DNA of 64,000 bases from Dehalococcoidia bacterium (GCA_041649635.1 JBAZMV010000001.1:426164-490163), one strand, 5' to 3'. Positions 1-46,785 are shown, numbered from the stretch's first letter. Numbers and translations are program-made. Notes: generated by a model not told the origin, from the letters alone.

Positions 1-932
1 GCGGCATAATCTGCAACGTCAAAGAGATGTCCCCGGCCGAGCTCGAGCGCCTGAGCAGGGCCTATGCGCAGTGCGTCTGGAAATTCATCGGACCGGAGCA
101 GGACGTCCCAGCCCCCGATGTCTACACCACCCCGCAGATAATGGCCTGGATGATGGATGAGTATTCCAAGATAGTCGGCAAGAACCAGTTCGGCACCATC
201 ACCGGCAAGCCCCTTTGCATCAGCGGCTCCAAGGGGCGCGGCGACGCGACGGCCCGTGGAGGGATGTTCACACTTAAGGAGGCGGCCAAGGTCTGCAAGA
301 TCGATTTGAGCAAGGCTACCGTGGCCGTGCAGGGATACGGCAATGCCGGCTCCTTCGCCCACAGCCTGAGCCAGGAGCTTTTCGGCTGCAAGGTCGTCGC
401 CGTCAGCGACAGCAAGGGCGGCATCTTCAACGCCAAAGGGCTTGACCCGCAGGCCGTCAGCAAGCACAAGGCTAAGACGGGCTCGGTTGTCAATTTCCCG
501 GGCGCCAAGAATATCTCCAACGCTGAGCTACTGGAGCTTGAGGTCGACGTGCTGCTGCCGAGCGCGCTGGAAAATGTCATTACGGAGAAGAACGCCGGCA
601 ATCTCAAGGCGAAGATAATCGGAGAACTGGCCAACGGGCCGACAACGCCCGAGGCCGACGCCATCATCTACAAGAAAGGCATCCACGTAATACCCGATTT
701 CCTGTGCAACGCCGGCGGCGTGACCGTCTCTTACTTCGAGATGGTGCAGAACTTCTACATGTTCAGCTGGGATGAGGACGAAGTGCGCGAGAAGCTGGAG
801 AAGCGGATGATCAGCGCTTACAACTCGGTGCTGGCTACCTCCAAGAAATACAAGATAAACATGCGCCAGGCGGCCTATGTGGTTGCCGTAGAGCGCGTGG
901 TCGAGGCCATGAAGCTTCGCGGCTGGGTCTAA
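1..932 (+). CDS. gdh: Glu/Leu/Phe/Val dehydrogenase (glutamate dehydrogenase), 5'-truncated by window edge
   Basis: C-terminal ~300 aa of GDH family: NAD-binding [10 protein letters not shown] Rossmann motif and typical C-terminal helices. ORF open to position 1. Confidence 0.85.
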
Positions 933-1675: not shown

Positions 1676-2160
1676 TTATGTCAACCCCGTGCTCAAAGCT
1701 GTCATTGCGAGTCCTTCCCCGTTAGGAATATGCGGAAGGACGTGGCAATCTCACAGCTAATCAACCCCCTGCAATCCCCCAATACGTTGGTCCTCTGGTA
1801 GGGGCGACCCTTGTGGTCGCCCGCAGCGGGCAGGCACAAGACCTGCCCCTACATATAGGGGACACCCCTATAACCCCGTCATGAGACCCTGTCTCCTGTA
1901 CCTCTTTCTAAAACTACCCTCTCCCTTGAGGGGAGAGGGCTATGGTGAGAGCGTTGTTAGTTCCCTTCTCTTTGATAAAGAGAGGGACTCAAGGGTGAGT
2001 TCGTGCAAGTTCCCCCTCTTTTTAGAAGAGGGGGTAAGGGGGAGTTTATCTTTAAATTATCTTCCCTCTCCCTCTGCAGGGAGAGGGTCAGGGTGAGGGT
2101 CGTAATCCGTCATTCCGGTGAAAACTGGAATCCGGACAGGGCGAGGCGACCTCGCCCCTA
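1676..2160. repeat. Mosaic block of hairpin repeat modules (F,B,C,A,G,H,G,E,C)
   Basis: The same modules recur >10 times each elsewhere in the window in varying order and orientation. Confidence 0.85.
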
Positions 2161-5100
2161 CTTGCTCTTCTTTCTCCCGCCGCTCTTCTTCCCCGCGCTC
2201 TTCCTGGCCACGGTCTTCTTCTTAACGACGCGCTTCTTCTTCGCGGGAAACACTTTGGATACGGCCGCCGCTATCGACTCGCGGCTGAACGGCTTGGCTA
2301 TAACGCCGTCCACCAGTTTCTTCTTTTCCTCATCGAGATCTATGACCCAGCCCGTTATCAGCAACACGGGCACTTCAGGTTTTATCTTCTTAATGGCTCG
2401 GGCCACATCCCAGCCCGACATTTCAGGCATACCGAGGTCGGTAATTACTATGTCGTATTTGCCGTCCTTGAAAGCCTTGATCGCCTCGACTCCTCTGGTG
2501 AAATCCTTGACCCAGTGGCCGAAGTACTCCAGCGTCAGCCCCAGCGCCTTGAGCACCTCGGGCTCGTCATCGACCGTGAGTATGCTGGCTGGTTTGACCG
2601 CGACAGCCTTGCTCTTCCTGGCCTGCTTCCTAACTTCCTCCACGGCCAGGGGCAGCCTGATGTAGAACGTCGTCCCCCTGCCCACCTCGCTGTCGAACTT
2701 TATCATGCCGTTATGCCTTGAGATTATGCCGTAGGTAACGCTCAGCCCGAGCCCCGAACCCTTGGAGGCCTTGGTGGTAAAGAACGGCTGGAATACCTTG
2801 CTCTTCACCTTTTCAGGTATTCCGACCCCTGTATCCTTTATAATTATCTGAACCCACTCTTCTTCCTGCTCGCTCTTAACGGTGAGCTTGCCGCCTGTAG
2901 GCATGGCGTCCAGGGCATTGAACAGTATGTTCAGGAGCGCCTCACGAAGCTCGGCGGCATCGCCTGATACACGTCCCACAGTACCAAGTTCGTGCGTAAC
3001 CTTGATAGCGATCCCCTTGGTCTGTTCCAGCTCCACCCTGCGGGATTCCACCATCTTGAGGACGCCCTCCGCCACCTCGTTAACGTCAAGCGGCTCGAAG
3101 GGATGCTCCACGCGTATCCGCGCGAAGTCCTGCAGGCGCTTCACCGTCTTGGCCGCGTCGAGGGCCGCCTGCTCTATTATCTGGATGCCCTTCTTCACTT
3201 TATCATCCTTGACGTCATCAATGACGAGCTGCGTGCGCCCCAGTATGACCGCCAGCATATTGTTGAAATCATGCGCTATCCCGCTGGCCATCTCGCCCAT
3301 AGCCCGCAGCTTCTCCGACTGCACCATGCGCTCATGCGCCGTCTTGAGCTCTTCATAGGCGCGCTCCAGTTCCACTTCCGCCTTCTTATGCTCCGTGGTC
3401 TCCATGAAGCTGGCCAGGACGGCGCGCCTTCCCTTATACCTGACGGGCGTGACCCTCTCCATGACCCATATCTGACGGCCGTCCTTCCTCAACGCCCTGA
3501 ACTCATAAGGCTGAACGGATGCCCCCTGGATATTATCTACAGCCTTAGTTCTCACCGTATCCCTGTCATCCGGGTGGACAAAGTCTATCGCCTCCTGTCC
3601 CAAGAGCTCCTCGCTGCTATAACCTACAATCTCTTCGAACATGGGGTTCACGTAGATGAACCTTTTATTCTGCAGCAGATATATACCCATGGCGGCGTTA
3701 TCCAGCATGGATCGCGACAGCTCCTCGCTCTCCCTGAGCGCCTCCTCCGCCTTCTTGCGCTCCGTGATATCCTGCCCCTGGGCGATGATAGCCATAGGGG
3801 TCTTGCCGTCCTCGGCGTATATCGGCGATATGTTCCACAGCACCGTCCTGACACCCCCGTCGAGGTTTGCGATGGGTATCTCCACCACCTCCCACCTGGC
3901 GCCCCTCATCGCCGTCCTGATAAAGCTCATGGACCTTTCCCGCGTACCCTTGGGGAACAGTATCTCAAGGTCTTTGCCGATTACGGACTTGGCCTTCATG
4001 CCCGTGAGCCGCTCAAAGGCGCGATTGAACCTTGTGATGCGGAAATCCGGGGTCCAGACAACCATGGGCACGTTGGCGTGCTCGATGAGGTTCTCCATGT
4101 AGTCGCGGGTCTCCCTGAGCTTCTCCTCGGCCTTCTTGCGCTCAGTGATATCCGTATGCACGCCCACAAGCCCGATGACCTTGCCCTTTTCATCCTTTAT
4201 CGCGTCCGCGCGCTCAAGTACGATGAACCTGCGCCCGCTCTTAGATACCATCTCCACCTCCCCGAACCACGAACCTCCACCCATTATCGTATCGAACACC
4301 TTGCGGGCCACATGTTTATTTGCAAAAGCGGCCGGGCCTCCGCCCGCGGCCTCAAGCTCCTCCGGGGTGTACTCGAACAGCTCGGTGAAAGCCCTGTTGT
4401 GATAGAAGTGGTGCCCCTGCGCATCGGATATGCCGATGGCATCGCTTGATCCTTCAACCGCCTTATTGATGCGAAGCAGGGTTTCCTCCACCTTCTTGCG
4501 TTCGGTGATGTCGGTTATGATTCCCATAATCGCCTTCTCACCGACGTAACTTATTAGCTTGGTGCTAAGAATCGTATCAAGCCTCCGTCCGTCCTTAGTG
4601 ATGAGCGCATATTCGTAAGGATCGACATCCCGTCCTTGCATATGGGCCTGGAACTTCTCCTTTATCAGATCACGATATTCCGGCGCCGTTAAGGAATTAA
4701 AGTCGAAAGCTGGAGAGTAAAATTCCTCACTGGTATAGCCCATCATCTCCTCACAGCGGCGGTTGGCATAGACCACGTGCCCCTTCACGTTGATGAATAT
4801 CATATTGGGAGACTGTTCAGCCAGGTTCCGGAATTTCTCCTCGCTCTCCCTCAGCGCTTCCTCCGCTTCTTTGGCAGCGGTCACCTCTATAAGGGAAATC
4901 AATGCCGCCGGCTTCCCCTCATATTCGTACGACGTAGTAGAACCAGCTACCCATATCACACGGCCATTCACCGTCCTGGCCTTTATAACGGCTAGTTCCT
5001 TCCTTTCGGGATCGGCCATGGATTGAGCGAACTGCTGGAGCACCCAGTCCATATCTTCCGGCAGAACATGCTCCTTGATAGCATCAACGCCGACCATTTC

Positions 5101-8100
5101 ATCCGGCGACTTGAACTCGAACATCCTTGCCATGGAATGATTGGCCAGCACTATCCTGCCGGTCTCCGCATCCACCACCTCCATGCCCAGCAGCGTATGC
5201 TCGAAGAGGTCTCTGTACTTGATTTCGCTCTCACGCAGCGCCTCCTCCGCCCTCTTGCGCTCGGTGATATCCGACATGATGCCGGTTACTCCTACCGTTT
5301 GACCGTCACTCAGCGTCGCCTTGCTCGCGGTACGGACCCAACGCACACTGCCATCCTTGAACCTAGTCCTGAACTCGGCGGGCTCAAAACTCCCGCCTAG
5401 TGTTTTCTCAAAGCTGGCCATCAAGTCTGGCAGGTCCTCCGGCAATATAAAGTCAACAAATGACTTGCCAACTATATCGCTGGGGCAGTAGCCGGACAGG
5501 CGTTCGATAGCCGGACTGACATAGGCAAAGTTGCCTTGCGCGTCAAGGGAGAAAATCAGGTCAGCGGAACCCTCCACCAGTATCCTGTACTTCTCTTCAC
5601 TATCCCGCAGCGCATCCTCAGCCTTCTTGCGTTCGCTGATGTCGCGACTGGCGATAATAAAACGCGAGGCGTTTCCAGAAGCATCAAGCAGTGCCCTGGC
5701 GGAGGCTTCTCCCCAAACATAGTGTCCATCGGCATGGCGGAAACGGTACTGATAACTGGCCTCTCCCTTTTCCTGTATCCCATCCAGAGAAGCTATCACG
5801 CTGTTCACATCCTCCGGGCAAAGGAAATCGAAAACAGGCTTTCCTACCAAATCTTCCGTTCTATATCCCAGTATTTTCTGATGAGATGGGCTTGCGTATA
5901 TAATGATTCCCTTCTCATTGACCAGAGATACCGCATCGAGCATATTCTCCGTGATCTCGCGGAACCTTTCTTCGCTCTCCCGCAACGCATCATCCGCCTG
6001 TTTGCGCATCAGCGCCACGCCTATGCTGGCGGCGATGCCCTCGAAGAAGCGTATCATCTCCGGGGTGAAACAGCCCTTGCGTCGATCGTTGAGCTGCAGC
6101 AGGCCAACGATCTCATTGCCGCTGCGGATGGGCATGAGCGCCACGGACTGGAAGCCGGCGTGGATGCAGCGGTTGCGCGGATGGTGCCGCGGGTCCTGCT
6201 CAAGCGGAACGTCGAGTAAAGCCGGCGAATCATTTGTCCAGGCGCTGCCGCCCGGTGTGAAGAGCGGATTGGATGGATCGGTCTTCCCGGACAGCACCAG
6301 GCCGCAGGTGCACTCCAGGCTCACATTGCCGTCCTTGTCGCGGCATATCCCGCCATGCGAGTCGCGGACGACAATCGTATTTTCAGTGAGCAGGAAATCC
6401 TCGGAGAATCCGTTCTGGACAAAGTACGGGAAGTCCTCGTCCTTTTTCAATCGAATTCCAACAGCGTAGAATCCCGTCTCCCGCTTGATGGCGGTAAGGA
6501 TGCGGTTGATGGCATCAGGCAGCGCCAACGGCTCATTAAGGATACCCAGTATCTCAGCGGCCAGCTTCTGATGAGCTTCCGCCTGCCTGCGTTCGATTAA
6601 ATCCCTCGCTACAACCACAATGCCGACCGGCTTGCCATTCGCGTCCAACATCAGGCTGCCCGAGGACTCAAGCGGCACTCTGCGCCCGCTCCTTGTAACT
6701 ATATTGTACCGGGCTACAGCCGGCTGTCCGCTTGTAATCAGTTCCTGCAGCGCCGCGGCAACCACCTCCCTATCTTCAGGAGCAACAGGTTCCAGCGCAC
6801 TTACGCCAATCTCATCTGTTTCAAAAAGCTTTCGTGCCGACTCGTTCAAATTTCTGACATTGCCTTCCATGTCAAGGATCAGGACAGGATCAAGCGTTGC
6901 CATAAACGCGTTGGAGAGTTCGATGATCCGGGATTCCGCCTTCTTACGTTCGGTGATATCGCGGAGTATGGCCATCATGCCCGTGGGTTTCCCGGTCTCA
7001 CCACGTATGAACGATACCATCATTTCGACAACGACTATGGAACCGTTTTTGTGGATCATCTCCAGTTCCAGGGTTTGCCCCAATCCGCTCTCCGGGTGGC
7101 GTTTTTCACGTTCCAACCCGGCCAGGAAGTACTTGGCAGCCTTCTCCATTGAGTCGGACGTCATTCTACCTTCCATGGTGCCTTCCAGCGCTTCTTCCAC
7201 GGAGTAGCCCAGCACGCGGTTGACGGACGGGCTGAAATAAACAGGTTTGGCATTCATATCCATGAGCATTATGACGTCAGAAGCGTTTTCGGCCAGCAGG
7301 CGGTACTTCTCCTCGCTCTCGCGCAGCGCCTCCTCAATCCGCTTGCGCTCGGTAATATCACGGTGCGTAACGATCAGCCCTATCGGATTTCCATTGGCGT
7401 CCTGCATCACTGTAGTATCGGTGTCAGCCAGATATTCACTGCCGTCCTTTCGCAGCAGAGTGAGCTCTATCGGCACACCCAGACCTGAGGCTAAATTATT
7501 AGACAGAGCCTGAGCCGCCCTGTCGCGATCCTTTTCACTGATAAAGTCAAATCCGTTTCTCCCGATGACTTCTTCTTTGCGGTCAAATCCGGTCAATTTC
7601 AACAATTCTGCATTAACATCAATGATTTTCCCTGACACATCGGTTACCGTGATACCAACGCCAACGGTCTGGAATAATATGCGCAGCTTCTCCTCGCTCT
7701 CCTGCAGCGCCTTATCCATGCGCTTGCGCTCGGTAACGTCTCTGGTAATGGCAATAACGGCGGGCCTGCCCTCATACTGAATAAGCTTCGTCGAGTTCTC
7801 CATCTCCTTGACCGAGCCGTCCTTGCACAGCATCCTGGTCTCAAAAATCTCGGGAACTTCTTTGCCTTCGGCACGCAGGCGGAATCTCTCTTCTAATACA
7901 GGGGCGAAGTCCGGCGGCACCAGATCGAACGTTGACATTGCAGTCAATTCTTCAACGGTATAACCGGACATCTCAGACATGCGTTTATTGACGAACTTTA
8001 GGGCCTGGTCCTGGATAATGCTGACGCCATCCGTCGCGTTCTCAACAAGGGTCGAGTATTTCTCCTCGCTCTCCCGCAGCGTTTCTTCCATGCGCTTGCG

Positions 8101-10095
8101 GTTGGTGATATCCGTATTAAACCCATGCCAGATTACACTGCCGTCAGCCAATTTCTCCGGCGTAGACTGGCCTAGCAACCATCTCACGGGCTTCCCGGGA
8201 ACCTGCACCCGGTATTCACACTGCCAGAGAGTCATATGTTCGGCTGAATACTCTATCGATTCCACTAACCTGCCGAGGTCCTCGGGCAAGACCACCCTGG
8301 TTACCGGAGAGAAATCATCGCGCACATCTTCCGGAGAGCATCCTAGAATATCCTTTATAGAATCCGTAGAAAAGGGAGCGCAGTACGTTCCATCAGGCCT
8401 TCTCAAGAACTGATAGATCATTCCGGGGACGTTATAAGCTAGTTTCTTGAATAGCCGGTCGCTTTCCCGCAGCGCCTCCTCCGCCCGCTTGCGCTCGTTG
8501 ATATCGCGCGAGACAGCGTATAGGCCGGTGATTTTCCCCTGCTCATCCCTGTTAGCACTGACCACGTGCTCCAGCCACACCGTGGAGCCGTTCTTGTGAT
8601 AGTACTCGGCTTCTATCGTTATAGTCCTATCGGGATCCACACCCTCCTTCCCATCCCGTTCCATCTCGGCTGTAAATACATTCATGATATGCTCGTAGGA
8701 CTGTGGTGTTACCGCTTCGTGATTTGTTATACCGACACGTTCCTCCGGTGTGAATCCGAGAACTTTAAATACGGACGGGCTGGTATAGGTAGGGCGGAAA
8801 TCAAGTCCCATGGTCCATACAATATCGTTCATCCTCTCCGTGAGGATACGATATTTCTCCTCGCCCTGGTGCAACGCCTCCTCCGCCCGCTTGCGTTCCG
8901 TTATATCACGCAGGTTCACAACTATGCCGCCGACAGCGGGATCATCGAGGAAACTTGTGGCGCTTACCTCAAAAGAATGCCACGAGCCGTCTTTATGACG
9001 CGCACGTACTTCGGAACGGCCCACAACATCTGATTCGATTCTTTTCATTCCATCGATCAGCGCATGCATATCATCCGGATGTATCGGATCAAAAACAACC
9101 TGCCCTATACGTTCCCCTTCGCTGTACCCCAGCAGGCGCGAGCAGCTAGGGCTTTCGTAAAGGATTTTCCCTCTGCTGTCCAGCACCATGATTCCGTCGG
9201 AGCTGTTTTCAATCAGCGACCGGAAGTACCTCTCCTTTTCCGTAAGCGCTTCCTCCATGCGCTTGCGCTCGGTGATGTCGACGTTTAACTCGGAGACCAG
9301 CCACTCGCCGTCGGCGCTCTGGAAAGGTATTGTATGCACTTCGACAATGCGGTTGTTCTCGCGCGGCAGCACATGCTCGGCCACGCCTGTCTGGTGAGTA
9401 CGGAAAGTATCGGGGATGGCGCAATCCCGGCATGCTTCCTTTTGCCCCCTGAAATACTCGTAGCATTTCCGGCCCGCGGGATCGCCATAGACCTTCTGCC
9501 ATTCCGGATCTACATAGCGCAGGTTGAACTCGCTATCGATTACATCGATATTGGTTTTACTCAAACCTATGATTTCTTCGAACCATTCATTTACTTTCTT
9601 GAGTTCTCCCTGCGCCTGCTTGAGCTTGGTGACGTCATGAAAATTTACAACGATGCCGCCGATAGCGGGCTCCTCAAGATGATTACGCGCTTCCGAATCC
9701 AGGGTATGCCAGGTGCCGTCGGGGTACAGCGCCCGTATCTGCATCCGCACGATCGTTTTGGGGTTCTTGATTATTTCAGTGAAATTCTTCCCTATCACAG
9801 GGATATCATCGGGGTGAATATTCTTGAACAAGTCCTGCCCCAGCACGCCCTCCGCCTTAAAACCCCACACCTTCTCGAAGTTCGGGCTGATATAGGTGAC
9901 GTTGCCCTGGCTCCCCAGTACGACGGTAACGTCCGATGCGGACTCGACCAGGGTGCGGAACCGTTCCTCGCTGCGCCGCAGCACCTCATCTATCTTCACG
10001 CGCTCAGCCGCAACAGCTTCAAGCTCGGCCGTCCGCCGGCGCAAACGATCCAGTTCGTCGATGAGCTGTCCCTGATCCCTGTTCTGATCATCCAT
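2158..10095 (-). CDS. Giant hybrid sensor histidine kinase/response regulator (2645 aa) with ~16 PAS/PAC modules and one GAF
   Basis: PAS modules are separated by a recurring coiled-coil linker ITERK(R/K)AEEALRESEEKYR. Has a GAF with a Cys-rich segment, HisKA H-box AHDFNNMLAVI, HATPase_c (DTGVGIP, GSGLGLS), a C-terminal REC (VDDEPEV...ITDLGMPEMSG) and a Lys-rich tail. Confidence 0.9.
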   Translation of the reverse strand: MDDQNRDQGQLIDELDRLRRRTAELEAVAAERVKIDEVLRRSEERFRTLVESASDVTVVLGSQGNVTYISPNFEKVWGFKAEGVLGQDLFKNIHPDDIPVIGKNFTEIIKNPKTIVRMQIRALYPDGTWHTLDSEARNHLEEPAIGGIVVNFHDVTKLKQAQGELKKVNEWFEEIIGLSKTNIDVIDSEFNLRYVDPEWQKVYGDPAGRKCYEYFRGQKEACRDCAIPDTFRTHQTGVAEHVLPRENNRIVEVHTIPFQSADGEWLVSELNVDITERKRMEEALTEKERYFRSLIENSSDGIMVLDSRGKILYESPSCSRLLGYSEGERIGQVVFDPIHPDDMHALIDGMKRIESDVVGRSEVRARHKDGSWHSFEVSATSFLDDPAVGGIVVNLRDITERKRAEEALHQGEEKYRILTERMNDIVWTMGLDFRPTYTSPSVFKVLGFTPEERVGITNHEAVTPQSYEHIMNVFTAEMERDGKEGVDPDRTITIEAEYYHKNGSTVWLEHVVSANRDEQGKITGLYAVSRDINERKRAEEALRESDRLFKKLAYNVPGMIYQFLRRPDGTYCAPFSTDSIKDILGCSPEDVRDDFSPVTRVVLPEDLGRLVESIEYSAEHMTLWQCEYRVQVPGKPVRWLLGQSTPEKLADGSVIWHGFNTDITNRKRMEETLRESEEKYSTLVENATDGVSIIQDQALKFVNKRMSEMSGYTVEELTAMSTFDLVPPDFAPVLEERFRLRAEGKEVPEIFETRMLCKDGSVKEMENSTKLIQYEGRPAVIAITRDVTERKRMDKALQESEEKLRILFQTVGVGITVTDVSGKIIDVNAELLKLTGFDRKEEVIGRNGFDFISEKDRDRAAQALSNNLASGLGVPIELTLLRKDGSEYLADTDTTVMQDANGNPIGLIVTHRDITERKRIEEALRESEEKYRLLAENASDVIMLMDMNAKPVYFSPSVNRVLGYSVEEALEGTMEGRMTSDSMEKAAKYFLAGLEREKRHPESGLGQTLELEMIHKNGSIVVVEMMVSFIRGETGKPTGMMAILRDITERKKAESRIIELSNAFMATLDPVLILDMEGNVRNLNESARKLFETDEIGVSALEPVAPEDREVVAAALQELITSGQPAVARYNIVTRSGRRVPLESSGSLMLDANGKPVGIVVVARDLIERRQAEAHQKLAAEILGILNEPLALPDAINRILTAIKRETGFYAVGIRLKKDEDFPYFVQNGFSEDFLLTENTIVVRDSHGGICRDKDGNVSLECTCGLVLSGKTDPSNPLFTPGGSAWTNDSPALLDVPLEQDPRHHPRNRCIHAGFQSVALMPIRSGNEIVGLLQLNDRRKGCFTPEMIRFFEGIAASIGVALMRKQADDALRESEERFREITENMLDAVSLVNEKGIIIYASPSHQKILGYRTEDLVGKPVFDFLCPEDVNSVIASLDGIQEKGEASYQYRFRHADGHYVWGEASARALLDASGNASRFIIASRDISERKKAEDALRDSEEKYRILVEGSADLIFSLDAQGNFAYVSPAIERLSGYCPSDIVGKSFVDFILPEDLPDLMASFEKTLGGSFEPAEFRTRFKDGSVRWVRTASKATLSDGQTVGVTGIMSDITERKRAEEALRESEIKYRDLFEHTLLGMEVVDAETGRIVLANHSMARMFEFKSPDEMVGVDAIKEHVLPEDMDWVLQQFAQSMADPERKELAVIKARTVNGRVIWVAGSTTSYEYEGKPAALISLIEVTAAKEAEEALRESEEKFRNLAEQSPNMIFINVKGHVVYANRRCEEMMGYTSEEFYSPAFDFNSLTAPEYRDLIKEKFQAHMQGRDVDPYEYALITKDGRRLDTILSTKLISYVGEKAIMGIITDITERKKVEETLLRINKAVEGSSDAIGISDAQGHHFYHNRAFTELFEYTPEELEAAGGGPAAFANKHVARKVFDTIMGGGSWFGEVEMVSKSGRRFIVLERADAIKDEKGKVIGLVGVHTDITERKKAEEKLRETRDYMENLIEHANVPMVVWTPDFRITRFNRAFERLTGMKAKSVIGKDLEILFPKGTRERSMSFIRTAMRGARWEVVEIPIANLDGGVRTVLWNISPIYAEDGKTPMAIIAQGQDITERKKAEEALRESEELSRSMLDNAAMGIYLLQNKRFIYVNPMFEEIVGYSSEELLGQEAIDFVHPDDRDTVRTKAVDNIQGASVQPYEFRALRKDGRQIWVMERVTPVRYKGRRAVLASFMETTEHKKAEVELERAYEELKTAHERMVQSEKLRAMGEMASGIAHDFNNMLAVILGRTQLVIDDVKDDKVKKGIQIIEQAALDAAKTVKRLQDFARIRVEHPFEPLDVNEVAEGVLKMVESRRVELEQTKGIAIKVTHELGTVGRVSGDAAELREALLNILFNALDAMPTGGKLTVKSEQEEEWVQIIIKDTGVGIPEKVKSKVFQPFFTTKASKGSGLGLSVTYGIISRHNGMIKFDSEVGRGTTFYIRLPLAVEEVRKQARKSKAVAVKPASILTVDDEPEVLKALGLTLEYFGHWVKDFTRGVEAIKAFKDGKYDIVITDLGMPEMSGWDVARAIKKIKPEVPVLLITGWVIDLDEEKKKLVDGVIAKPFSRESIAAAVSKVFPAKKKRVVKKKTVARKSAGKKSGGRKKSK

Positions 10096-10242
10096 GGCGC
10101 CAACCTCCGGGTTCGATCGTACAACTCGATGTGTAAACGTGCCTCGATTGCGAGGAAAAACGTATCTGAATGGGAGTGAAATTTACCACAATTCCCGAGT
10201 AAAGTCAATCTGTGGAAGATAGAAATGAGGCGTCGGGCAGGT

Positions 10243-12109: not shown

Positions 12110-13045
12110 TCCGAGGCGTACGTGCGGCTGTCGGCGGGTGATGCTGTGGCGGTATGCTCCGTTATTAAAAATAGCCCGGCTTCGCCGAGCGTCGGTTCAC
12201 GCTTACATTATACTACCAAATCGATTGTAAGGTAATTGCGGGTTTATGTCAAGAATATGATGGTGTCGGTCGATAGGAAACCGAACCCCCTGTCAGGCCC
12301 CTTTCTCAAAGCTGTCATTGCGAGTCCTTCCACGATAAAATTAGGCGGAAGGACGACGTGGCAATCTCGTAGCTGGTCAACCCCCTGTATCCCCCAATCA
12401 TGGGGGATGAAAAAAAAGATATAGGGGACACCCCTATAACCCCGTCAGGAGACTCTGTCTCCTGTACCTCTCTTAGCTAGCTAACCCCTCTCTCGGAGAG
12501 GTGCCTGGATTCGGATTGTAATATTAATAAACCCGTCTTGTAGGGGCGAGGTCATCTCGCCCTTCAGCCCCACCGTAGGGGCACGGCATGCCGTGCCCGT
12601 TGTGTTCCCCCTCTTTTTAGAAGAGGGGGTTAGGGGGTGTTAATTTAAAATTATTTCCCTCTCCCTGCGCAGGGAGAGGGTCAGGGTGAGGGTCGTACTC
12701 GTCATTCCGGCGAAGGCCGGAATCCGCGTAGGGGCGTATGGCCATACGCCCGTTATTTGGTGGGTTTCTGAACCCACCCTACATACGATCGTTGCGTAAG
12801 GGCTTGATTAATCAAGCCCTTACATCCCGGCCCCTATCGGCGAAAGAGACGACCTCGCCCCTACGCAAATCCCCCTTGCTCCCCCCTTTCATAAAGGGGG
12901 GAGATATATCTCGTTTATATGCTGTTGATGGTGTTCTTCACCTTCAACAATTAGAGGGTGTCCTTCTGCGGAAGGACTCCCGTTATTTGGTGGGTTTGCG
13001 AACCCACCCTACATACTACATACGATCGTTGCGTAGGGGCGAATC
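12110..13045. repeat. Mosaic repeat block (~0.9 kb; F,B,A,C,H,G,E,C,D,I,D,C modules)
   Basis: Contains no coding potential. ORF 12738..13076 in the six-frame track is a translation of D/C/I modules. Confidence 0.85.
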
Positions 13046-13072
13046 TTGTATTCGCCCTTCACGTTCCCCCTC

Positions 13073-13101
13073 TTGACAGAATGGCGGCTATGTGGTACTT
13101 T
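13073..13101 (+). promoter_or_regulatory. Sigma70-like promoter (TTGACA-17-TACTTT) for the first CAP-domain gene
   Basis: -35 TTGACA at 13073-78, 17-nt spacer, -10 TACTTT. The whole leader is duplicated upstream of the paralog at 13864. Confidence 0.4.
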
Positions 13102-13129
13102 ATCCAAATTTCCATTTGAGGGTAGGAAT

Positions 13130-13597
13130 ATGTCTATTATGAACTGGATAAACAAGTGGCGCCTGGCGAAACAGATAAACGATGTCAGGGCAAGCAACGG
13201 CCTGAACTCGCTGACGAGGGACAGGTCGCTGGATAACGTAGCCTGGCAGCACGCCATGTATATGGCCAATAACAACAGGCTGGGCTACGACGGCTTCGAG
13301 AATAGGGCCGCTATCATCAGGTGGCAGAGCAAGAGATCCGACAGGAAATGCGTGGGTGAAAACTGCGGCAAGCACACCGGCTCCTCGCTCGATGCAAACG
13401 TCATCCGGGCCACGATGGACGGCTGGATGAAGTCCGACAGCCACAGGAATGCCATTATGAATCCCGTTTATAACAAAACGGGGATAGCCGGCGTCGTCGA
13501 GCAGGGACACGTTTATGTAGTGCAGGTTTTCGCGGGCGAAGGCGTGAAGGCCAGGCGGCTCCCCGCGGTTTCAGCTACCCCCGCCTTCTCCGAGTAA
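13130..13597 (+). CDS. CAP/SCP/PR-1 (YkwD-like) domain protein, no signal peptide
   Basis: GYDGFENRA, VGENCG and DGWMKSDSHRNAIMNP motifs of the CAP superfamily. Start ATG at 13130 behind a gagggtagg SD. Confidence 0.75.
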   Translation: MSIMNWINKWRLAKQINDVRASNGLNSLTRDRSLDNVAWQHAMYMANNNRLGYDGFENRAAIIRWQSKRSDRKCVGENCGKHTGSSLDANVIRATMDGWMKSDSHRNAIMNPVYNKTGIAGVVEQGHVYVVQVFAGEGVKARRLPAVSATPAFSE

Positions 13598-13863: not shown

Positions 13864-13892
13864 TTGACTGCCCGGCAACTATGGAGTATATT
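13864..13892 (+). promoter_or_regulatory. Sigma70-like promoter (TTGACT-17-TATATT) for the second CAP-domain gene
   Basis: Well-spaced hexamers. Leader sequence tatggAGtaTAttatccCaatttGcat is near-identical to the leader at 13089. Confidence 0.5.
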
Positions 13893-13940
13893 ATCCCAAT
13901 TTGCATAGACGGAGCGTATGTGATCAAGAGGGACACAGCT

Positions 13941-14351
13941 ATGTTTTTTTTGAAATGGATCAACAAGTGGCGGCTGACGGAGGAGATCAACGACATCAGG
14001 CACAGGAACGGTTTGGAGCCGCTTTCAAGGATGAGGTTCCTTGATAAGATCGCCTGGCAGCATGCCAGGTATATGGCCAGGAACGATAAGCTGGGACATG
14101 ACGGTTTTCACGCCAGGTCCCTGTTGATAAGGGAGCAAAAGAAAACGATACCGAGTAAATACGTGGGTGAAAACTGCGGCAAATGCCCGGGCCGGTCCTT
14201 CAACAAAGAAGTTATCAGGGCTACCACGGACGGATGGATGAAGTCGGCCAGCCACAGGAAAGCGATCCTGAATCCGGAATACAATATGACAGGCGTAGGC
14301 TGTATCACAAATAAGGAATATGTTTATATCGTGCAGATTTTTGTTGGTTGA
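13941..14351 (+). CDS. CAP/SCP/PR-1 domain protein (paralog of 13130..13597)
   Basis: ~50% identical to the upstream paralog over its full length (WINKWRL...VGENCG...DGWMKS.SHR.AI.NP). ATG at 13941 behind an agaggga SD. Confidence 0.75.
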   Translation: MFFLKWINKWRLTEEINDIRHRNGLEPLSRMRFLDKIAWQHARYMARNDKLGHDGFHARSLLIREQKKTIPSKYVGENCGKCPGRSFNKEVIRATTDGWMKSASHRKAILNPEYNMTGVGCITNKEYVYIVQIFVG

Positions 14352-14950: not shown

Positions 14951-15553
14951 ATGTTTATCGCATCGGGTGTGCTGGGACTTATCATTCCACTGTTCGTCAT
15001 CGGCGTCATCCTCTATCTTGTTCTGAAGCGCCGCAACGACAGGGAGGGCGTTTCAGCTTATAAGGGCCTCCTCATGGTCTATTTCTACACTCTTATAGGA
15101 GCCAGCATCATTATCGCCGCTATAGGCGCGGGGTATCTCCTATCAGCCGCTTTCAGCTCGGCCTACAGCGACAGGTCGATCGTAAATGACCTCACAGCGG
15201 GCATCACGATGTTCTGTACCGGCACCATCATCTGCGTGCTGCATGTAGTAGGCAAGAAGGCCGTGGAGGCCAGAGAGGGAAAGACCACGCCGCTGCTGAG
15301 GCGGGTATATCTGTTCATCATGCTCGGCATCTTCAGCATGGGAGGCATCGTGTCTCTGCCGCTGGCGATATATGAAACCGCCCGCTACTATGTGAAAGAT
15401 GAAACTTCCTGGGGCGATCCGTCCGGAGCCATCGCGGCGGCGGTCGTTATCGTGCCGCTGTGGATATACTACCTGATGAGGGTCATGCGCGAGGCGCGCG
15501 CCGCGAGGAACGAAGAGGCGTCGTCGGATGATACGACCGGAGGAGTGACATAG
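14951..15553 (+). CDS. Hypothetical integral membrane protein (4 predicted TM helices)
   Basis: ATG behind a ctgagggggtg SD. Hydrophobic segments alternate with charged loops. No recognisable catalytic motif. Confidence 0.6.
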   Translation: MFIASGVLGLIIPLFVIGVILYLVLKRRNDREGVSAYKGLLMVYFYTLIGASIIIAAIGAGYLLSAAFSSAYSDRSIVNDLTAGITMFCTGTIICVLHVVGKKAVEAREGKTTPLLRRVYLFIMLGIFSMGGIVSLPLAIYETARYYVKDETSWGDPSGAIAAAVVIVPLWIYYLMRVMREARAARNEEASSDDTTGGVT

Positions 15554-16200
15554 TCAACCCCCTGCTATCCCTTTCTCAAAGCTGTCATTGCCACGTCCTT
15601 CCCCTTATGAATATGAGGAAGGACGTGGCAATCTCCTAGCTAGTCAACCCCCTGCTATCCCCCAATCTTGGGGGATGTAAAAAAGAGTTAGGGGACACCC
15701 CTATAACCCCGTCAGGAGAGGAATCTCCTGAATCTCTCTTCTCTTGGACTGTCATTCTGAGTCCTTGCGGAGAATGACGAAGAATCTCGGCTACGTGGTG
15801 GGTTTGCGAACCCACCCTACATGCGATCGTCGCGTAGGGGCGAATAATCATTCGCCCGTTCCGTTCGTAGGGGCATGGCGTGCCGTGCCCGTCGGATTCC
15901 CCCTCTTTTGAGAAGAGGGGGTAAGGGGGTGTTCAAAATTAATTTTCTTCCCTCTCCCTCCGCAGGGAGAGGGTCAGGGTGAGGGTATGCGCGACGCAGA
16001 TGGGATGTCGTTGGTCGATAATATACCGAACCCCCTATAGCCCCCCATACGTTTCCTTCCATAATAGGTGCTATTTAGAAGAATTCCGGATTGGAAGGGA
16101 ATATTTGAAGGTTAGGGGGACACCCCCGGTTCCCCCGGCAGAGGGAAGACCCTCTGCACACCCTCATTAACGCGCATAGACCCTCATATCATTATGCCCC
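15554..16200. repeat. Mosaic repeat block (B-half,F,B,A,F',D,C,C',H,G,B')
   Basis: Includes a 21-bp perfect direct repeat tagtcaaccccctgctatccc flanking an F module (15551-15571 and 15640-15660). Confidence 0.85.
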
Positions 16201-35395: not shown

Positions 35396-37669
35396 TCATT
35401 TCCACACCGGCGGGATCTCCAGCTCGATAACGATGGAATCCACAGGGATGGTCTTGTCCGCATCGGCAGCCAGGTCCAGGTGCGGCACCATCAGGCAGAA
35501 GCTCAGCGTGTCATCGACGATAGACAGGTCCTCCGTCTTCCATCTGGCCCGCGCCGTCGTCCAGCCGTCGTAGCTGTCGGTCACATAGTAGCCGTCGTAG
35601 TTCACGACGATGTAATCCACGTACTCCTTGAAATCCGAGACGTAGGTCTCAAGGCCGGCCACCTCGCAGCGCCTGGGCAGGAAGAAGGAGTCCGGCGTGA
35701 AGGACATGTAGCCGTTGAACTCCAGCGTCAGGTTCTGCCTGGCCGTCACTATCATGTACGAGCCCGGCGCGAGGTTCACCGCGAAGGGCTTATCCATCTC
35801 ATCGATGTAGAGCCCGGCATAGAAGCCGTCCCCGATCACGGCCGCCTGCTGAATGCCGCTTGCGTCATCGCAGGAGAACTCCGCCCGCTGCAGCGACAGG
35901 CCCTGCGTGTACAGCGCCAGCGCGTCGGCCGGTGCGCCCGCGTTGGAGGTGTAGCCCGTGTCCGCCGGGGCGGGGGTGATGCTGTCGTCCAGCACCAGCT
36001 TGCCCTGATTGATGCTTATTTGCCTTATCAGGAGGTCTTCACCCGTCATCTCTATGCGATATGCCCCCGTCGACAGATTGGAGGCCGTAAGCGACGCACC
36101 CTGCATCGGGCCCGGTTCGCCGCCCGCCGAGGCGTCGCCGTCGTCCGCTATCGAGGCGTTGGCCGTTAGATCGCCGGCGAGGTCGTAGATTTCGATGCTC
36201 AATGCGTCCGCGCCCTCGTCCTGATTCAAATCCTGTTTCGTCACGCTCAGCTCAAGGACGCCGTTATCGACGAATGTCCAGAAGGTGTGGCTTCCCTTTA
36301 ATGAAATATTTATGTCAAGCCAGCCCTTGCCCTCCTCTACGGTGTTGAAGGACGGGATGAAGAGAGATTCCTCCGTTAGCGAGATGAGGGCCCCGGTGGC
36401 TTCCAACGCAACATCGCCCAAGCTCGACCTCAGGCGGTAGAGTCCCGGCTCCAGAGCGCCGGACGTGTACCACGTTCCCGACTCGTTGACGTACGTCTCC
36501 AGCCTCATCTCATCGCCCCAGACGGTGACGTACTGCGGCACCTGCTCCCCGGGCGAGGAGAACCTTATCTCGCCGGGGGCCGCCAGGTACAGCCAGGCCT
36601 CGGCCGCGGCCGTGTTCCCGCCTTCGTAGCTGTAGCCCGCCAGGTACAGTCCGTCCGCGGCTATCGCTTTGCCCTGGTTATAGGCGATGTTCGTGATTAT
36701 GAAATCGATCTCCTCACCCTGCGGCGCGACGGCGAGGCGGTAGACGCCCCTGTCGCTCTGCTCCATGTTTATATGGCAGCGCTGTTTCTGTCCCAGCATC
36801 TTGCTGTCCGTGAAATTAAAATCGTCGAATATAACCTCGCTCACGGCAAGGGTCCCGTCCGGCGCGTAGAGCGACACGTTAATGTTATCCAGCCCCGCGA
36901 TGCGGTTCAGGTCGCGCTTCTCCACCGTCAGCTCGAATTCTCCGCCGTTGGAGTACAGGTAGAATTCCTGCGCGCCCAGCAGCGCGGCGCCGCCGTCCAG
37001 GGGGGCGTACGCGGCGCGGGGATCCGGCAGCAGCGCGGAGAGCCCGGCCCCGGCATCGTAATCGCCGAACTGCGTATTGACGTACTCCTGCAGCGTCACC
37101 ACCTGGTTTATGTCCAGCGACGGGTCGCCGCTGGCTATCAGCGAGCCCAGCGGCGGGTTGCCCAGGGGGTCCATGACCGTGGACAGGGGCGGGGGGTTCT
37201 CCGTGTCGGTGGCGTAGACCATCATCGAGCCGTTCTGCGTCACCAGCGGCAGATCGACGAGCTGGCCGTAGAACGGAACGTATGCGTACCTCAGGCTGTA
37301 GCCTTCTTCACACTGCGCGCCGATGACGAAGATGCCGTCCTCCGGGAAGTTGTCCGCGAACCTGACGGCCACCGCGACCTCGTCCGCCTGCGATAATCTC
37401 GGATCGGTGAGCTCGAAATAGACCGTGTCACCCGTTATCTCGCGATAGGTCACGCTGCCGTTGGACATCGCCTCCGAGAAGCCGGACGCGTTCCCCGAGA
37501 GGCGCGCCTTGCCGCTCAAATCGTTGCCGCCGACATCGATCCTGTGTTCGGGCGAGCCGCCCAGGGGCAGGAAGTTGATGTAGAGGATGATGAGCACGAC
37601 CGCAAGCGGCGCCAGCCAGAGGAGCCTGACGTACTTCTTCTTTGACGACGGTCTGCTCTCTTCGCTCAT
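35396..37669 (-). CDS. Large secreted/membrane-anchored hypothetical protein (757 aa)
   Basis: N-terminal KKKYVRLLWLAPLAVVLIIL signal anchor, then a long Gly/Asp/Tyr-rich, apparently beta-rich ectodomain. Translationally coupled (4-nt overlap) to the upstream GT-C gene. Confidence 0.6.
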   Translation of the reverse strand: MSEESRPSSKKKYVRLLWLAPLAVVLIILYINFLPLGGSPEHRIDVGGNDLSGKARLSGNASGFSEAMSNGSVTYREITGDTVYFELTDPRLSQADEVAVAVRFADNFPEDGIFVIGAQCEEGYSLRYAYVPFYGQLVDLPLVTQNGSMMVYATDTENPPPLSTVMDPLGNPPLGSLIASGDPSLDINQVVTLQEYVNTQFGDYDAGAGLSALLPDPRAAYAPLDGGAALLGAQEFYLYSNGGEFELTVEKRDLNRIAGLDNINVSLYAPDGTLAVSEVIFDDFNFTDSKMLGQKQRCHINMEQSDRGVYRLAVAPQGEEIDFIITNIAYNQGKAIAADGLYLAGYSYEGGNTAAAEAWLYLAAPGEIRFSSPGEQVPQYVTVWGDEMRLETYVNESGTWYTSGALEPGLYRLRSSLGDVALEATGALISLTEESLFIPSFNTVEEGKGWLDINISLKGSHTFWTFVDNGVLELSVTKQDLNQDEGADALSIEIYDLAGDLTANASIADDGDASAGGEPGPMQGASLTASNLSTGAYRIEMTGEDLLIRQISINQGKLVLDDSITPAPADTGYTSNAGAPADALALYTQGLSLQRAEFSCDDASGIQQAAVIGDGFYAGLYIDEMDKPFAVNLAPGSYMIVTARQNLTLEFNGYMSFTPDSFFLPRRCEVAGLETYVSDFKEYVDYIVVNYDGYYVTDSYDGWTTARARWKTEDLSIVDDTLSFCLMVPHLDLAADADKTIPVDSIVIELEIPPVWK

Positions 37670-45991: not shown

Positions 45992-46785
45992 ACTCGCCCT
46001 TCCTTCCATGATATTGAGGTATATCTCCCCCCTTTATGAAAGGGGGATCAGGGGGATTTACGTAGGGCGGGTTTCCAACCCGCCGCGTAGGGAGACGTAT
46101 TCGTATGGTGGGTTCACAAACCCACCATGTTGACGAGATTCTTCATCGTTCCCAGCAAGGATTCAGAATGACAGCCTTGAGAAAGGGGAGTCCAGAGGGA
46201 GCACCCTCTGACGGGGTTATAGGGGTGTCCCCTATATCTTTTTTTTCATCCCCCAAGATTGGGGGATACAGGGGGTTGATGATAGTTGAGATTGCCACGT
46301 CGTCTTTCCGAACTGCTGAAGTACTCCTCGCAATGACAGTCCAAGAGAACAGAGGTTCAGTTTGTAGGGCGGGTTTCCAACCCGCCGAATAACGGGCGAA
46401 TGATTATTCGCCCCTACGTGGATTCCGGCCTTCGCCGGAATGACGGGTACGACCCTCACCCTGACCCTCTCCCTGCAGAGGGAGAGGGAAATAATTTTTA
46501 AATTAACACCCCCTAACCCCCTCTTCTCAAAAGAGGGGGAAGAGGCTCCGCCTCGGGGTTTTACCGACACTAAAGATTATGGTTTATTCACGCTCACTTT
46601 AGTCCTCTCCCCTCAAGGTAGAGGTTAGCTTCTCACAGAGGTACAGGAGACCCTGTCTCCTGACGGGGTTATAGGGGTGTCCCCTATCTATTTTTTTATA
46701 TCCCCCATGACTGGGGGATTCCAGGGGGTTGAACCTAACCTACCGGACGGTTGCCTAATTCTCAATCTCCATATAAAATAGTAAA
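45992..46785. repeat. Mosaic repeat block (J,D,D,F',A,B,F,D,C,E,G,H,A,B mostly reversed)
   Basis: Modules as defined in the summary. Confidence 0.85.

Follow-up and report, generated by a model that had tools for sequence, protein, structure and literature searches.

The kinase gene and its domains

The gene considered here encodes a hybrid sensor histidine kinase with a long array of PAS domains and lies on a 64,000-nt stretch of DNA from a Dehalococcoidia bacterium (GCA_041649635.1, JBAZMV010000001.1:426164-490163), which at its full length we call the window. It occupies positions 2158–10095 of the minus strand as a single uninterrupted, ATG-initiated open reading frame (ORF) of 2,645 codons with zero internal stops, just as an earlier note, made from the sequence alone, had read it. 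Across its 7.9 kb the gene shows no change in reading frame, composition or strand skew; it is intact and apparently monocistronic, with a promoter-like site of its own. An identical protein of 2,645 aa has been deposited in NCBI (MFA5054946.1, entitled 'MAG: PAS domain S-box protein [Dehalococcoidia bacterium]', where MAG stands for metagenome-assembled genome) and appears in JGI/IMG and ENA as well, the contigs measuring 95 kb and up to 780 kb; a frameshift or a local error of assembly is thereby made less likely, with the reservation that the records may come from one and the same sample. The features of the gene are as follows.

10180–10208, minus strand: promoter-like site, sigma-70-like, TTGACT-17-TAAATT, with TG before the -10 (extended -10), inside a conserved 118-nt upstream stretch
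10104–10108, minus strand: Shine–Dalgarno sequence GGAGG, 8 nt 5' of the ATG (read directly)
2158–10095, minus strand: coding sequence of the hybrid sensor histidine kinase, 2,645 aa, identical to NCBI MFA5054946.1
10015–10095, minus strand: N-terminal charged segment, likely helical, before PAS1 (aa 1–27)
6604–10014, minus strand: PAS1–PAS9 (aa 28–1164), each module after a helical linker
9280–9639, minus strand: PAS2, divergent, PAS_4-type (aa 153–272), with C211, C222 and C225
6013–6603, minus strand: GAF domain (aa 1165–1361)
3388–6012, minus strand: PAS10–PAS16 (aa 1362–2236), PAS14–16 being conserved with all three nearest relatives
3112–3300, minus strand: HisKA dimerization and phospho-acceptor domain (aa 2266–2328), H-box SGIAHDFNN, His2275
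2644–2964, minus strand: HATPase_c (aa 2378–2484), N box N2393, G1 box DTGVG (2421–2425), F box FQPFFTTK, G2 box GSGLG (2446–2450)
2260–2583, minus strand: receiver (aa 2505–2612), D2509/D2510, phospho-acceptor D2553, T2581, K2601
2161–2241, minus strand: Lys/Arg-rich tail (aa 2619–2645)
3360–9637, minus strand: 16 linker-coding repeats of 44–62 nt, DITERKRAEEALRESE..., sites of homology breakpoints with related genes
Starts of linker repeats 1–8, minus strand: 3360, 3729, 4110, 4470, 4845, 5229, 5601, 5976
Starts of linker repeats 9–16, minus strand: 6918, 7317, 7698, 8070, 8463, 8865, 9237, 9594

The protein thus carries 16 PAS domains and one GAF domain head to tail, joined by amphipathic DIT linkers of ~20 residues and followed by HisKA–HATPase_c, a receiver and a polybasic tail. 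A Pfam scan of the whole protein returned up to 14 PAS-family stretches per model, together with GAF, HisKA, HATPase_c and Response_reg. When the protein was cut at the repeated D-I-T-E-R-K motif into 16 modules of 119–134 aa and these were scanned separately, 15 of the 16 passed Pfam PAS-family gathering scores. The 16th, PAS2, scores 24.0 bits with PAS_4 (cut-off 23.1) if taken as aa 153–289, with its C-terminal helix included; cut as aa 153–272 it gives no Pfam match at 1e-3, a boundary effect. Its AlphaFold model (pLDDT 93) has the classical PAS topology (strand–strand–helices–three strands, with N- and C-terminal helices), and the top Foldseek matches of the model are LOV/PAS structures (probability 1.00, TM about 0.6). 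The PAS count is therefore exactly 16. The domain search did not yield fewer units than the roughly 16 proposed in the earlier note, and the single GAF, the HisKA/HATPase pair, the receiver and the Lys-rich C-terminus listed there were all recovered by Pfam and from motifs.

The catalytic part is complete. HisKA scores 31.0–31.1 bits (cut-off 26.9) and H2275 is invariant in 10 relatives; HATPase_c scores 87–90 bits, with the N, G1, F and G2 boxes all present; Response_reg scores 69–71 bits, with acidic pair, phospho-acceptor Asp, Thr and Lys all present. A model of the C-terminal part displays a DHp hairpin, a catalytic domain and a (beta/alpha)5 receiver. The GAF segment in isolation gives 40.5 bits with GAF_2 (cut-off 28.6) and 38.1 with GAF (22.4), the profile being matched only in its C-terminal half. 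Since no signal peptide or membrane segment was found in the whole protein, whose highest 19-residue Kyte–Doolittle mean is 1.27, we take it to be cytoplasmic. The net charge is -69 overall, the protein beyond the tail being strongly acidic.

Origin of the PAS array

The modules are separated by a repeated linker, DITERKRAEEALRESEEKYR, of ~20 residues, and a direct-repeat search found 16 copies of the 44-nt DNA encoding it, 61–91% identical to the reference copy. The copies are spaced by 357–402 nt, a period of ~372 nt, except at the GAF domain, where two of them are 942 nt apart. D-[IV]-T opens 11 of the 16 module boundaries, the remainder reading DIN, DIS, DLI, EVT and KKA, and hydrophobic positions recur within the linker at 2, 12, 19 and 22–23, as in an amphipathic helix. 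The DIT motif is widespread and is thought to couple the PAS core to the following helix or coiled coil (Moglich et al., cited in PMC3183031); by their sequence, the linkers fit a PAS DIT motif plus a helical connector.

The best homologues of the kinase are Dehalococcoidia MAG proteins, and orthologous loci were found through the contigs encoding the related proteins; a scan of genome contigs with the whole protein recovered multi-PAS genes that were all distant and belonged to other phyla, but no close relative. Three of the related proteins are instructive. P0001 (2,767 aa, locus L013) resembles the window in its upstream neighbour, TypA/BipA. P0003 (2,096 aa, loci L011 and L012) resembles it in its downstream neighbours, the GNAT acetyltransferase and glutamate dehydrogenase genes, and begins with dCache-HAMP, an architecture present on two contigs from two samples. 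P0002 (locus L010) is partial, ending with its contig, and has an upstream region in common with the window: positions 10096–10213, a 118-nt stretch directly before the kinase start that contains the promoter-like site, are ~94% identical to L010 9883–10000. Because these 118 nt are conserved although the genes beyond them differ (TypA in the window, an SMC_N/AAA gene at L010), the kinase gene and its promoter seem, from the sequence, to have moved or been retained as one unit. The module orders, in which the numbers are the PAS types of the window, compare as follows.

Window: 1-2-3-4-5-6-7-8-9-GAF-10-11-12-13-14-15-16-kinase-receiver-tail
P0002: 1-2-3-[no 4]-5-6-6'-8-9-GAF-x-12-13-14-(contig end)
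P0001: y-1'-?-6-z-8-w-9-GAF-u-v-t-10-12-s-14-15-16-kinase-receiver-tail
P0003: dCache-HAMP-a-1'-8-6-b-9-GAF-14-15-16-kinase-receiver-tail

Module types common to these proteins are 68–100% identical, with the exception of the PAS1-like modules (46–51%). Relatives that share a flanking gene keep PAS14-15-16, kinase, receiver and Lys tail, and also the PAS9–GAF block; other cassettes are inserted, deleted, replaced or permuted. The ends of the homologous blocks found by blastn coincide with the linkers: of 25 ends, 19 fall inside a 60-nt linker segment, and the count rises to 24 if a margin of 15 nt is allowed. Linkers make up 16% of the sensor-coding region, and none of 20,000 random sets matched this clustering. 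The PAS4 difference can be followed most closely, since in a three-way alignment the left part of the single L010 linker equals the PAS3/4 linker of the window and its right part the PAS4/5 linker, with the change from one to the other within about 35 shared bases. On this alignment, a whole cassette has been gained or lost precisely and in frame, as recombination between linker repeats would bring about.

Considering these results together, we suggest, with a probability of roughly 0.8, that the array consists of old PAS cassettes shuffled between relatives, with their joints in the linker-coding segments, in an intact gene for a soluble hybrid sensor kinase. Several points weigh against this. 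The BLAST blocks run on into the conserved linkers, so the breakpoints are accurate only to the cassette boundary, and selection for in-frame, foldable products would concentrate joints at linkers without any special recombination mechanism. Every sequence compared is a metagenome assembly, and L010 and L013 may be chimeras of strains or paralogues. On the signalling side, we infer dimerization, signal integration, phosphotransfer and the sensed signals alike, the receiver might be an internal regulator or a phosphate sink rather than a relay step, and the negative result on partner proteins given below does not extend to small Hpt proteins, for which no specific search was made.

The repeated linker had been taken in the earlier note as the mark of a recent tandem amplification of one PAS-plus-linker cassette within the gene. 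The repeat itself is real, and its 16-fold recurrence with a ~372-nt period, the 44-nt DNA copies reaching 91% identity, is what such an amplification would leave; some pairs of modules are also somewhat closer than the rest (PAS4/PAS8, the closest cores, at 38%, and PAS1/PAS3 at about 37%), and P0002 has two adjacent PAS6-type modules, 91% and 61% identical to PAS6 of the window, from which we judge that tandem duplication may occur within the family. Recency, however, finds no echo in the PAS cores. In the 16-module alignment, mean pairwise identity is 24% over the whole, 49% over the first 22 columns (the linker) and 19% over the cores, with adjacent modules (19.5%) no closer than non-neighbours, and Tandem Repeats Finder returned no ~372-nt tandem array. 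Where cores have the same amino acid they share the codon in 38% of cases against 40% expected from the codon usage of the gene, so that no trace of recent common ancestry remains. Each core is closer to an external multi-PAS protein (about 50–100% identity) than to any other core of the array, and several of these external relatives carry HD or GGDEF output domains and no kinase. The linker, moreover, is the consensus, DITERKRAEEALRESEEKLR, that follows D-I-T in the 120 best-scoring homologues (Dehalococcoidia, Smithella, Methanoregula and Ignavibacteriae are among those named), and its conservation thus reflects functional constraint, not recency. As judged from these sequence comparisons, the array is not the product of recent duplication, which we regard as extremely improbable, and its modules are old, distinct PAS subtypes.

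Two further explanations accept old modules or question the assemblies. If the relatives differed by loss only, an ancestral longer array would have been trimmed by linker–linker deletions with no gain or exchange; the clean linker-to-linker PAS4 indel is compatible with deletion, and relatives with up to 25 modules exist. Loss does not put unrelated cassettes into the same slot, yet PAS7 of the window corresponds to a PAS6-like copy in P0002 and PAS10–11 to one unrelated module there; nor does it reverse the order of PAS6 and PAS8 or supply a dCache-HAMP N-terminus, as seen in P0003, or place relatives of PAS10 and PAS11 (67–69% identical) in proteins with HD-type output domains. Since replacement and permutation of cassettes require gain or exchange besides loss, we consider loss alone unlikely. 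That metagenome assembly produced the long ORF or the mosaic artificially, by joining reads wrongly at the repeated linkers, is less probable again, and we give it very little weight: the window and all relatives are indeed metagenome-assembled, and block identities to L010 range from 88 to 96%, but the linker repeats, at 44–62 nt and no more than 91% identity, are shorter and more divergent than the usual causes of mis-joins, the gene is uniform in frame, composition and strand skew, the identical protein recurs in three databases on contigs of different length, and the architecture of P0003 recurs in two samples.

The shuffling of old cassettes leaves one property of the linkers to be considered. 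Where amino acids are identical, the linkers of four related genes agree in codon at a higher rate than codon usage would lead one to expect, while cores lie at expectation.

Window (16-module alignment): linker 58% against 42% expected; core 38% against 40%
L013 (strict-motif method): linker 66% against 41% expected; core 39% against 40%
L010 (strict-motif method): linker 55% against 41% expected; core 38% against 38%
L011 (relaxed-motif method): linker 57% against 40% expected; core 35% against 35%

Module alignments gave 61% against 42.5% for the linkers of P0001 (L013) and a much weaker 42% against 37.5% for those of P0003 (L011), so that at L011 the effect varies in size with the method used. 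In those pairs that have many residues in common, codon sharing is strongest for the linkers flanking PAS7 and for those flanking PAS15. The excess could stem from recurrent exchange or gene conversion between linkers, from selection at the nucleotide level or from codon-context bias.

Candidate inputs, polybasic tail and neighbourhood

Judged by its sequence relatives, PAS2 is a widespread, strongly conserved PAS_4 subtype that Pfam barely detects. A word-indexed protein search with PAS2 alone gave one match, and the subtype was therefore counted by an exhaustive search of cluster representatives, 1,718 of which match at E <= 1e-3 and 220 at E <= 1e-30, typically with 55–64% identity. C211, C222 and C225 (C-x10-C-x2-C) are invariant in 153 homologous PAS2 segments, and E213 is kept in 70–90%. 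Ten PAS2 representatives that were scanned contain no sigma-54 activator domain such as that of OrpR, being associated with PAS, GAF, kinase or receiver domains or being short PAS-only sequences. The PAS domain of OrpR from Desulfovibrio vulgaris binds a redox-sensitive [4Fe-4S] cluster through three conserved cysteines and an acidic residue close to them (PMC8359166), and NreB has a three-cysteine [2Fe-2S] site (PMC13478379). In PAS2, as in OrpR, the second residue beyond the first cysteine is acidic (C211-Y-E213; C52 and D/E54 in OrpR), but the two differ in cysteine spacing, C-x10-C-x2-C against C-x8-C-x3-C (C52/C61/C65), a comparison made by description and not by sequence. Because of this difference, the analogy serves only as a lead, by which the three-cysteine PAS2 is a possible metal or Fe–S redox input.

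The GAF domain also contains cysteines (C1251, C1262, C1264, C1310 and C1342, with a C-x-C pair at C1262/C1264). Sequence searches of the PDB with PAS2 and with GAF returned chance matches only, so that no solved structure related by sequence was found there for the GAF domain. PAS7 gave a weak NCBIfam match to the YtvA family; a LOV identity was rejected, as PAS7 has GRNGFDFI and lacks the Cys motif that binds flavin. No cofactor signature was recognized in the remaining modules.

The tail, aa 2619–2645, reads KKKRVVKKKTVARKSAGKKSGGRKKSK: 27 residues, 15 of them K/R and none acidic, with a net charge of +15. A 15-nt tandem repeat (2164–2221; Tandem Repeats Finder) codes for part of the tail, which is predicted to be disordered (pLDDT 31–43, no secondary structure). 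The earlier note was right about its presence and had held it to be unusual; it is a trait of the clade, since of 31 receiver-ending homologues 12 of the 13 nearest by receiver have a Lys-rich tail, and none of the 18 more distant ones does. In relatives (P0001, P0003, P0004, P0006–P0013, P0016 and P0031 were considered) the tails are of 13–67 residues with 8–18 K/R and are not conserved in sequence. That the composition is kept across relatives whose kinase–receiver regions are 53–57% identical suggests that the tail is functional. As speculation, one may imagine that it binds nucleic acid or an anionic membrane, or that it folds back onto the acidic linkers; a literature search for Lys-rich tails on receiver domains gave nothing relevant.

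The kinase gene is flanked by genes for TypA/BipA, a GNAT acetyltransferase and glutamate dehydrogenase. No other ORF with a receiver, kinase, PAS or GAF domain was detected in the 64-kb window by phmmer with the kinase's own domains, small Hpt proteins not being specifically searched. A look for cognate response regulators nearby, as the earlier note advised, thus came back empty, and as far as the window shows the kinase can be called an orphan. In 30 further ORFs, mostly of at least 150 aa, Pfam scans revealed housekeeping genes and a glycan-biosynthesis cluster.

Several other features of the window may be recorded. An intergenic hairpin repeat with the core CCCTCTCCC-N5-6-GGGAGAGGG is dispersed in five copies, against 0 expected in shuffles, and most copies extend as TCAGGGTGAGGGTCGTA...CATTCCGG over about 60–70 nt. 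Two copies fall within the 485 nt that separate the stop codon of the kinase from the GNAT gene, which converges on it, and another inverted repeat, GC-rich and of 27 nt, adjoins them there. From its sequence, the element looks like a repetitive extragenic palindromic (REP) or miniature inverted-repeat transposable element (MITE)-like repeat. A few kb upstream of the kinase are two adjacent CAP (cysteine-rich secretory protein family) ORFs and a DUF5671 ORF, and beyond them is a large cluster for surface-glycan biosynthesis, which encodes UDP-glucose dehydrogenase, several GT2/GT4 transferases, asparagine synthase, CDP-glycerol glycerophosphotransferase, a flippase-like protein and two PMT_2 proteins.

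1917–1939, 2064–2087, 12657–12680, 15950–15973 and 46465–46488 (the last in opposite orientation): hairpin repeat copies
1798–1852: GC-rich 27-nt inverted repeat
13046–13597, 13881–14351 and 14951–15553, all plus strand: two CAP ORFs and the DUF5671 ORF
16485–45991: surface-glycan biosynthesis cluster
35396–37669, minus strand: 757-aa ORF within the glycan cluster, no Pfam match

Proposed signalling scheme and related systems

By analogy with the PAS-linked kinases FixL and YF1, the protein would act as a parallel dimer in which changes of ligand, cofactor or redox state in single PAS or GAF modules pass through the helical connectors to the DHp helices, where they would set the rate of autophosphorylation of His2275. 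The phosphoryl group could then move from His2275 to Asp2553 of the protein's own receiver and on to a phosphotransfer protein or regulator, which, as none was detected in the window, would be encoded elsewhere.

A bolder proposal joins the codon data to the tail: the linker-coding segments, beyond any effect of constraint on the protein, would be in-frame recombination sites by which a family of giant Dehalococcoidia kinases re-assorts PAS cassettes quickly, their DNA being kept alike for or by exchange, and the clade-specific polybasic tail would be a phosphorylation-controlled tether to DNA, RNA or anionic membrane. We regard this combination as doubtful, and offer it tentatively. If it were true of the tail, 'orphan' kinases of this kind would gain an output of their own.

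The protein itself adds little, as giant multi-PAS kinases are abundant in anaerobes and the exact sequence was already deposited. The value of the locus lies in relatives that share its flanking genes, and so let the gain, loss, replacement and permutation of cassettes be mapped to the base at the linker repeats. It also draws attention to two features of many uncharacterized sensors, the polybasic tail and a three-cysteine PAS subtype that may sense redox or metal, and for synthetic biology the natural DIT-linker joints indicate sites for in-frame PAS swaps.

In its size the protein is less exceptional than the earlier note supposed in ranking it with the largest signalling proteins to be expected in a bacterium. 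A hidden Markov model made from the 16 modules of the window counts 16 or more PAS modules in 33 of the 120 best homologues; the highest number is 25 (P0089, 3,899 aa), and the longest of the 120 is 4,595 aa. It is large yet typical of its family, and such proteins are common in Dehalococcoidia. The giant PAS-array proteins of Dehalococcoidia and Chloroflexota MAGs (P0001, P0003, P0004 and others, entered by their sources as 'PAS domain S-box protein') have in common with it the kinase–receiver core (53–90% identity), the Lys-rich tail and the linker consensus, and P0001 (TypA) and P0003 (GNAT and glutamate dehydrogenase) a flanking gene as well; they differ in the complement and order of their PAS cassettes, and P0003 in being membrane-anchored through dCache-HAMP. 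A literature search for PAS kinases in Dehalococcoidia found no paper.

The linkers resemble the S-helix (Anantharaman, Balaji and Aravind 2006, PMC1592074) in that both are helical connectors found between PAS and PAS, between GAF and PAS, and before the kinase. The S-helix has a defining 'ERT' signature, however, which is absent from all 16 linkers and from the PAS16–HisKA connector, and we rejected this identity; the linkers here read DITERK... and fit the PAS DIT motif plus an N-terminal cap helix. Among kinases of known structure, PAS16 together with the DHp and catalytic domains aligns at full length with the YF1/FixL chimeras (PDB 4gcz, E = 2.5e-33), ThkA (3a0r) also being near. In these FixL-type kinases, as here, a helix after a DIT-like motif joins PAS to DHp; unlike them, PAS16 has no identified haem or flavin signature, and 15 further PAS domains, a GAF domain, a receiver and a tail are added.

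The closest precedent for the history that we propose is the lineage-specific expansion of kinases described with Desulfovibrio as an example, in which upstream PAS domains are shuffled, kinase-proximal ones are conserved and the kinases are orphans (Alm, Huang and Arkin 2006, PMC1630713). The present family agrees with these kinases in its conserved kinase-proximal PAS domains, its shuffled upstream PAS domains and the lack of an adjacent response regulator, and in both cases soluble and membrane-bound variants share the same core. It departs from them in having 16 PAS domains and a GAF domain against a few, in its Dehalococcoidia host and in its fused receiver with a polybasic tail, and here the joints between cassettes can be placed in the linker-coding DNA.

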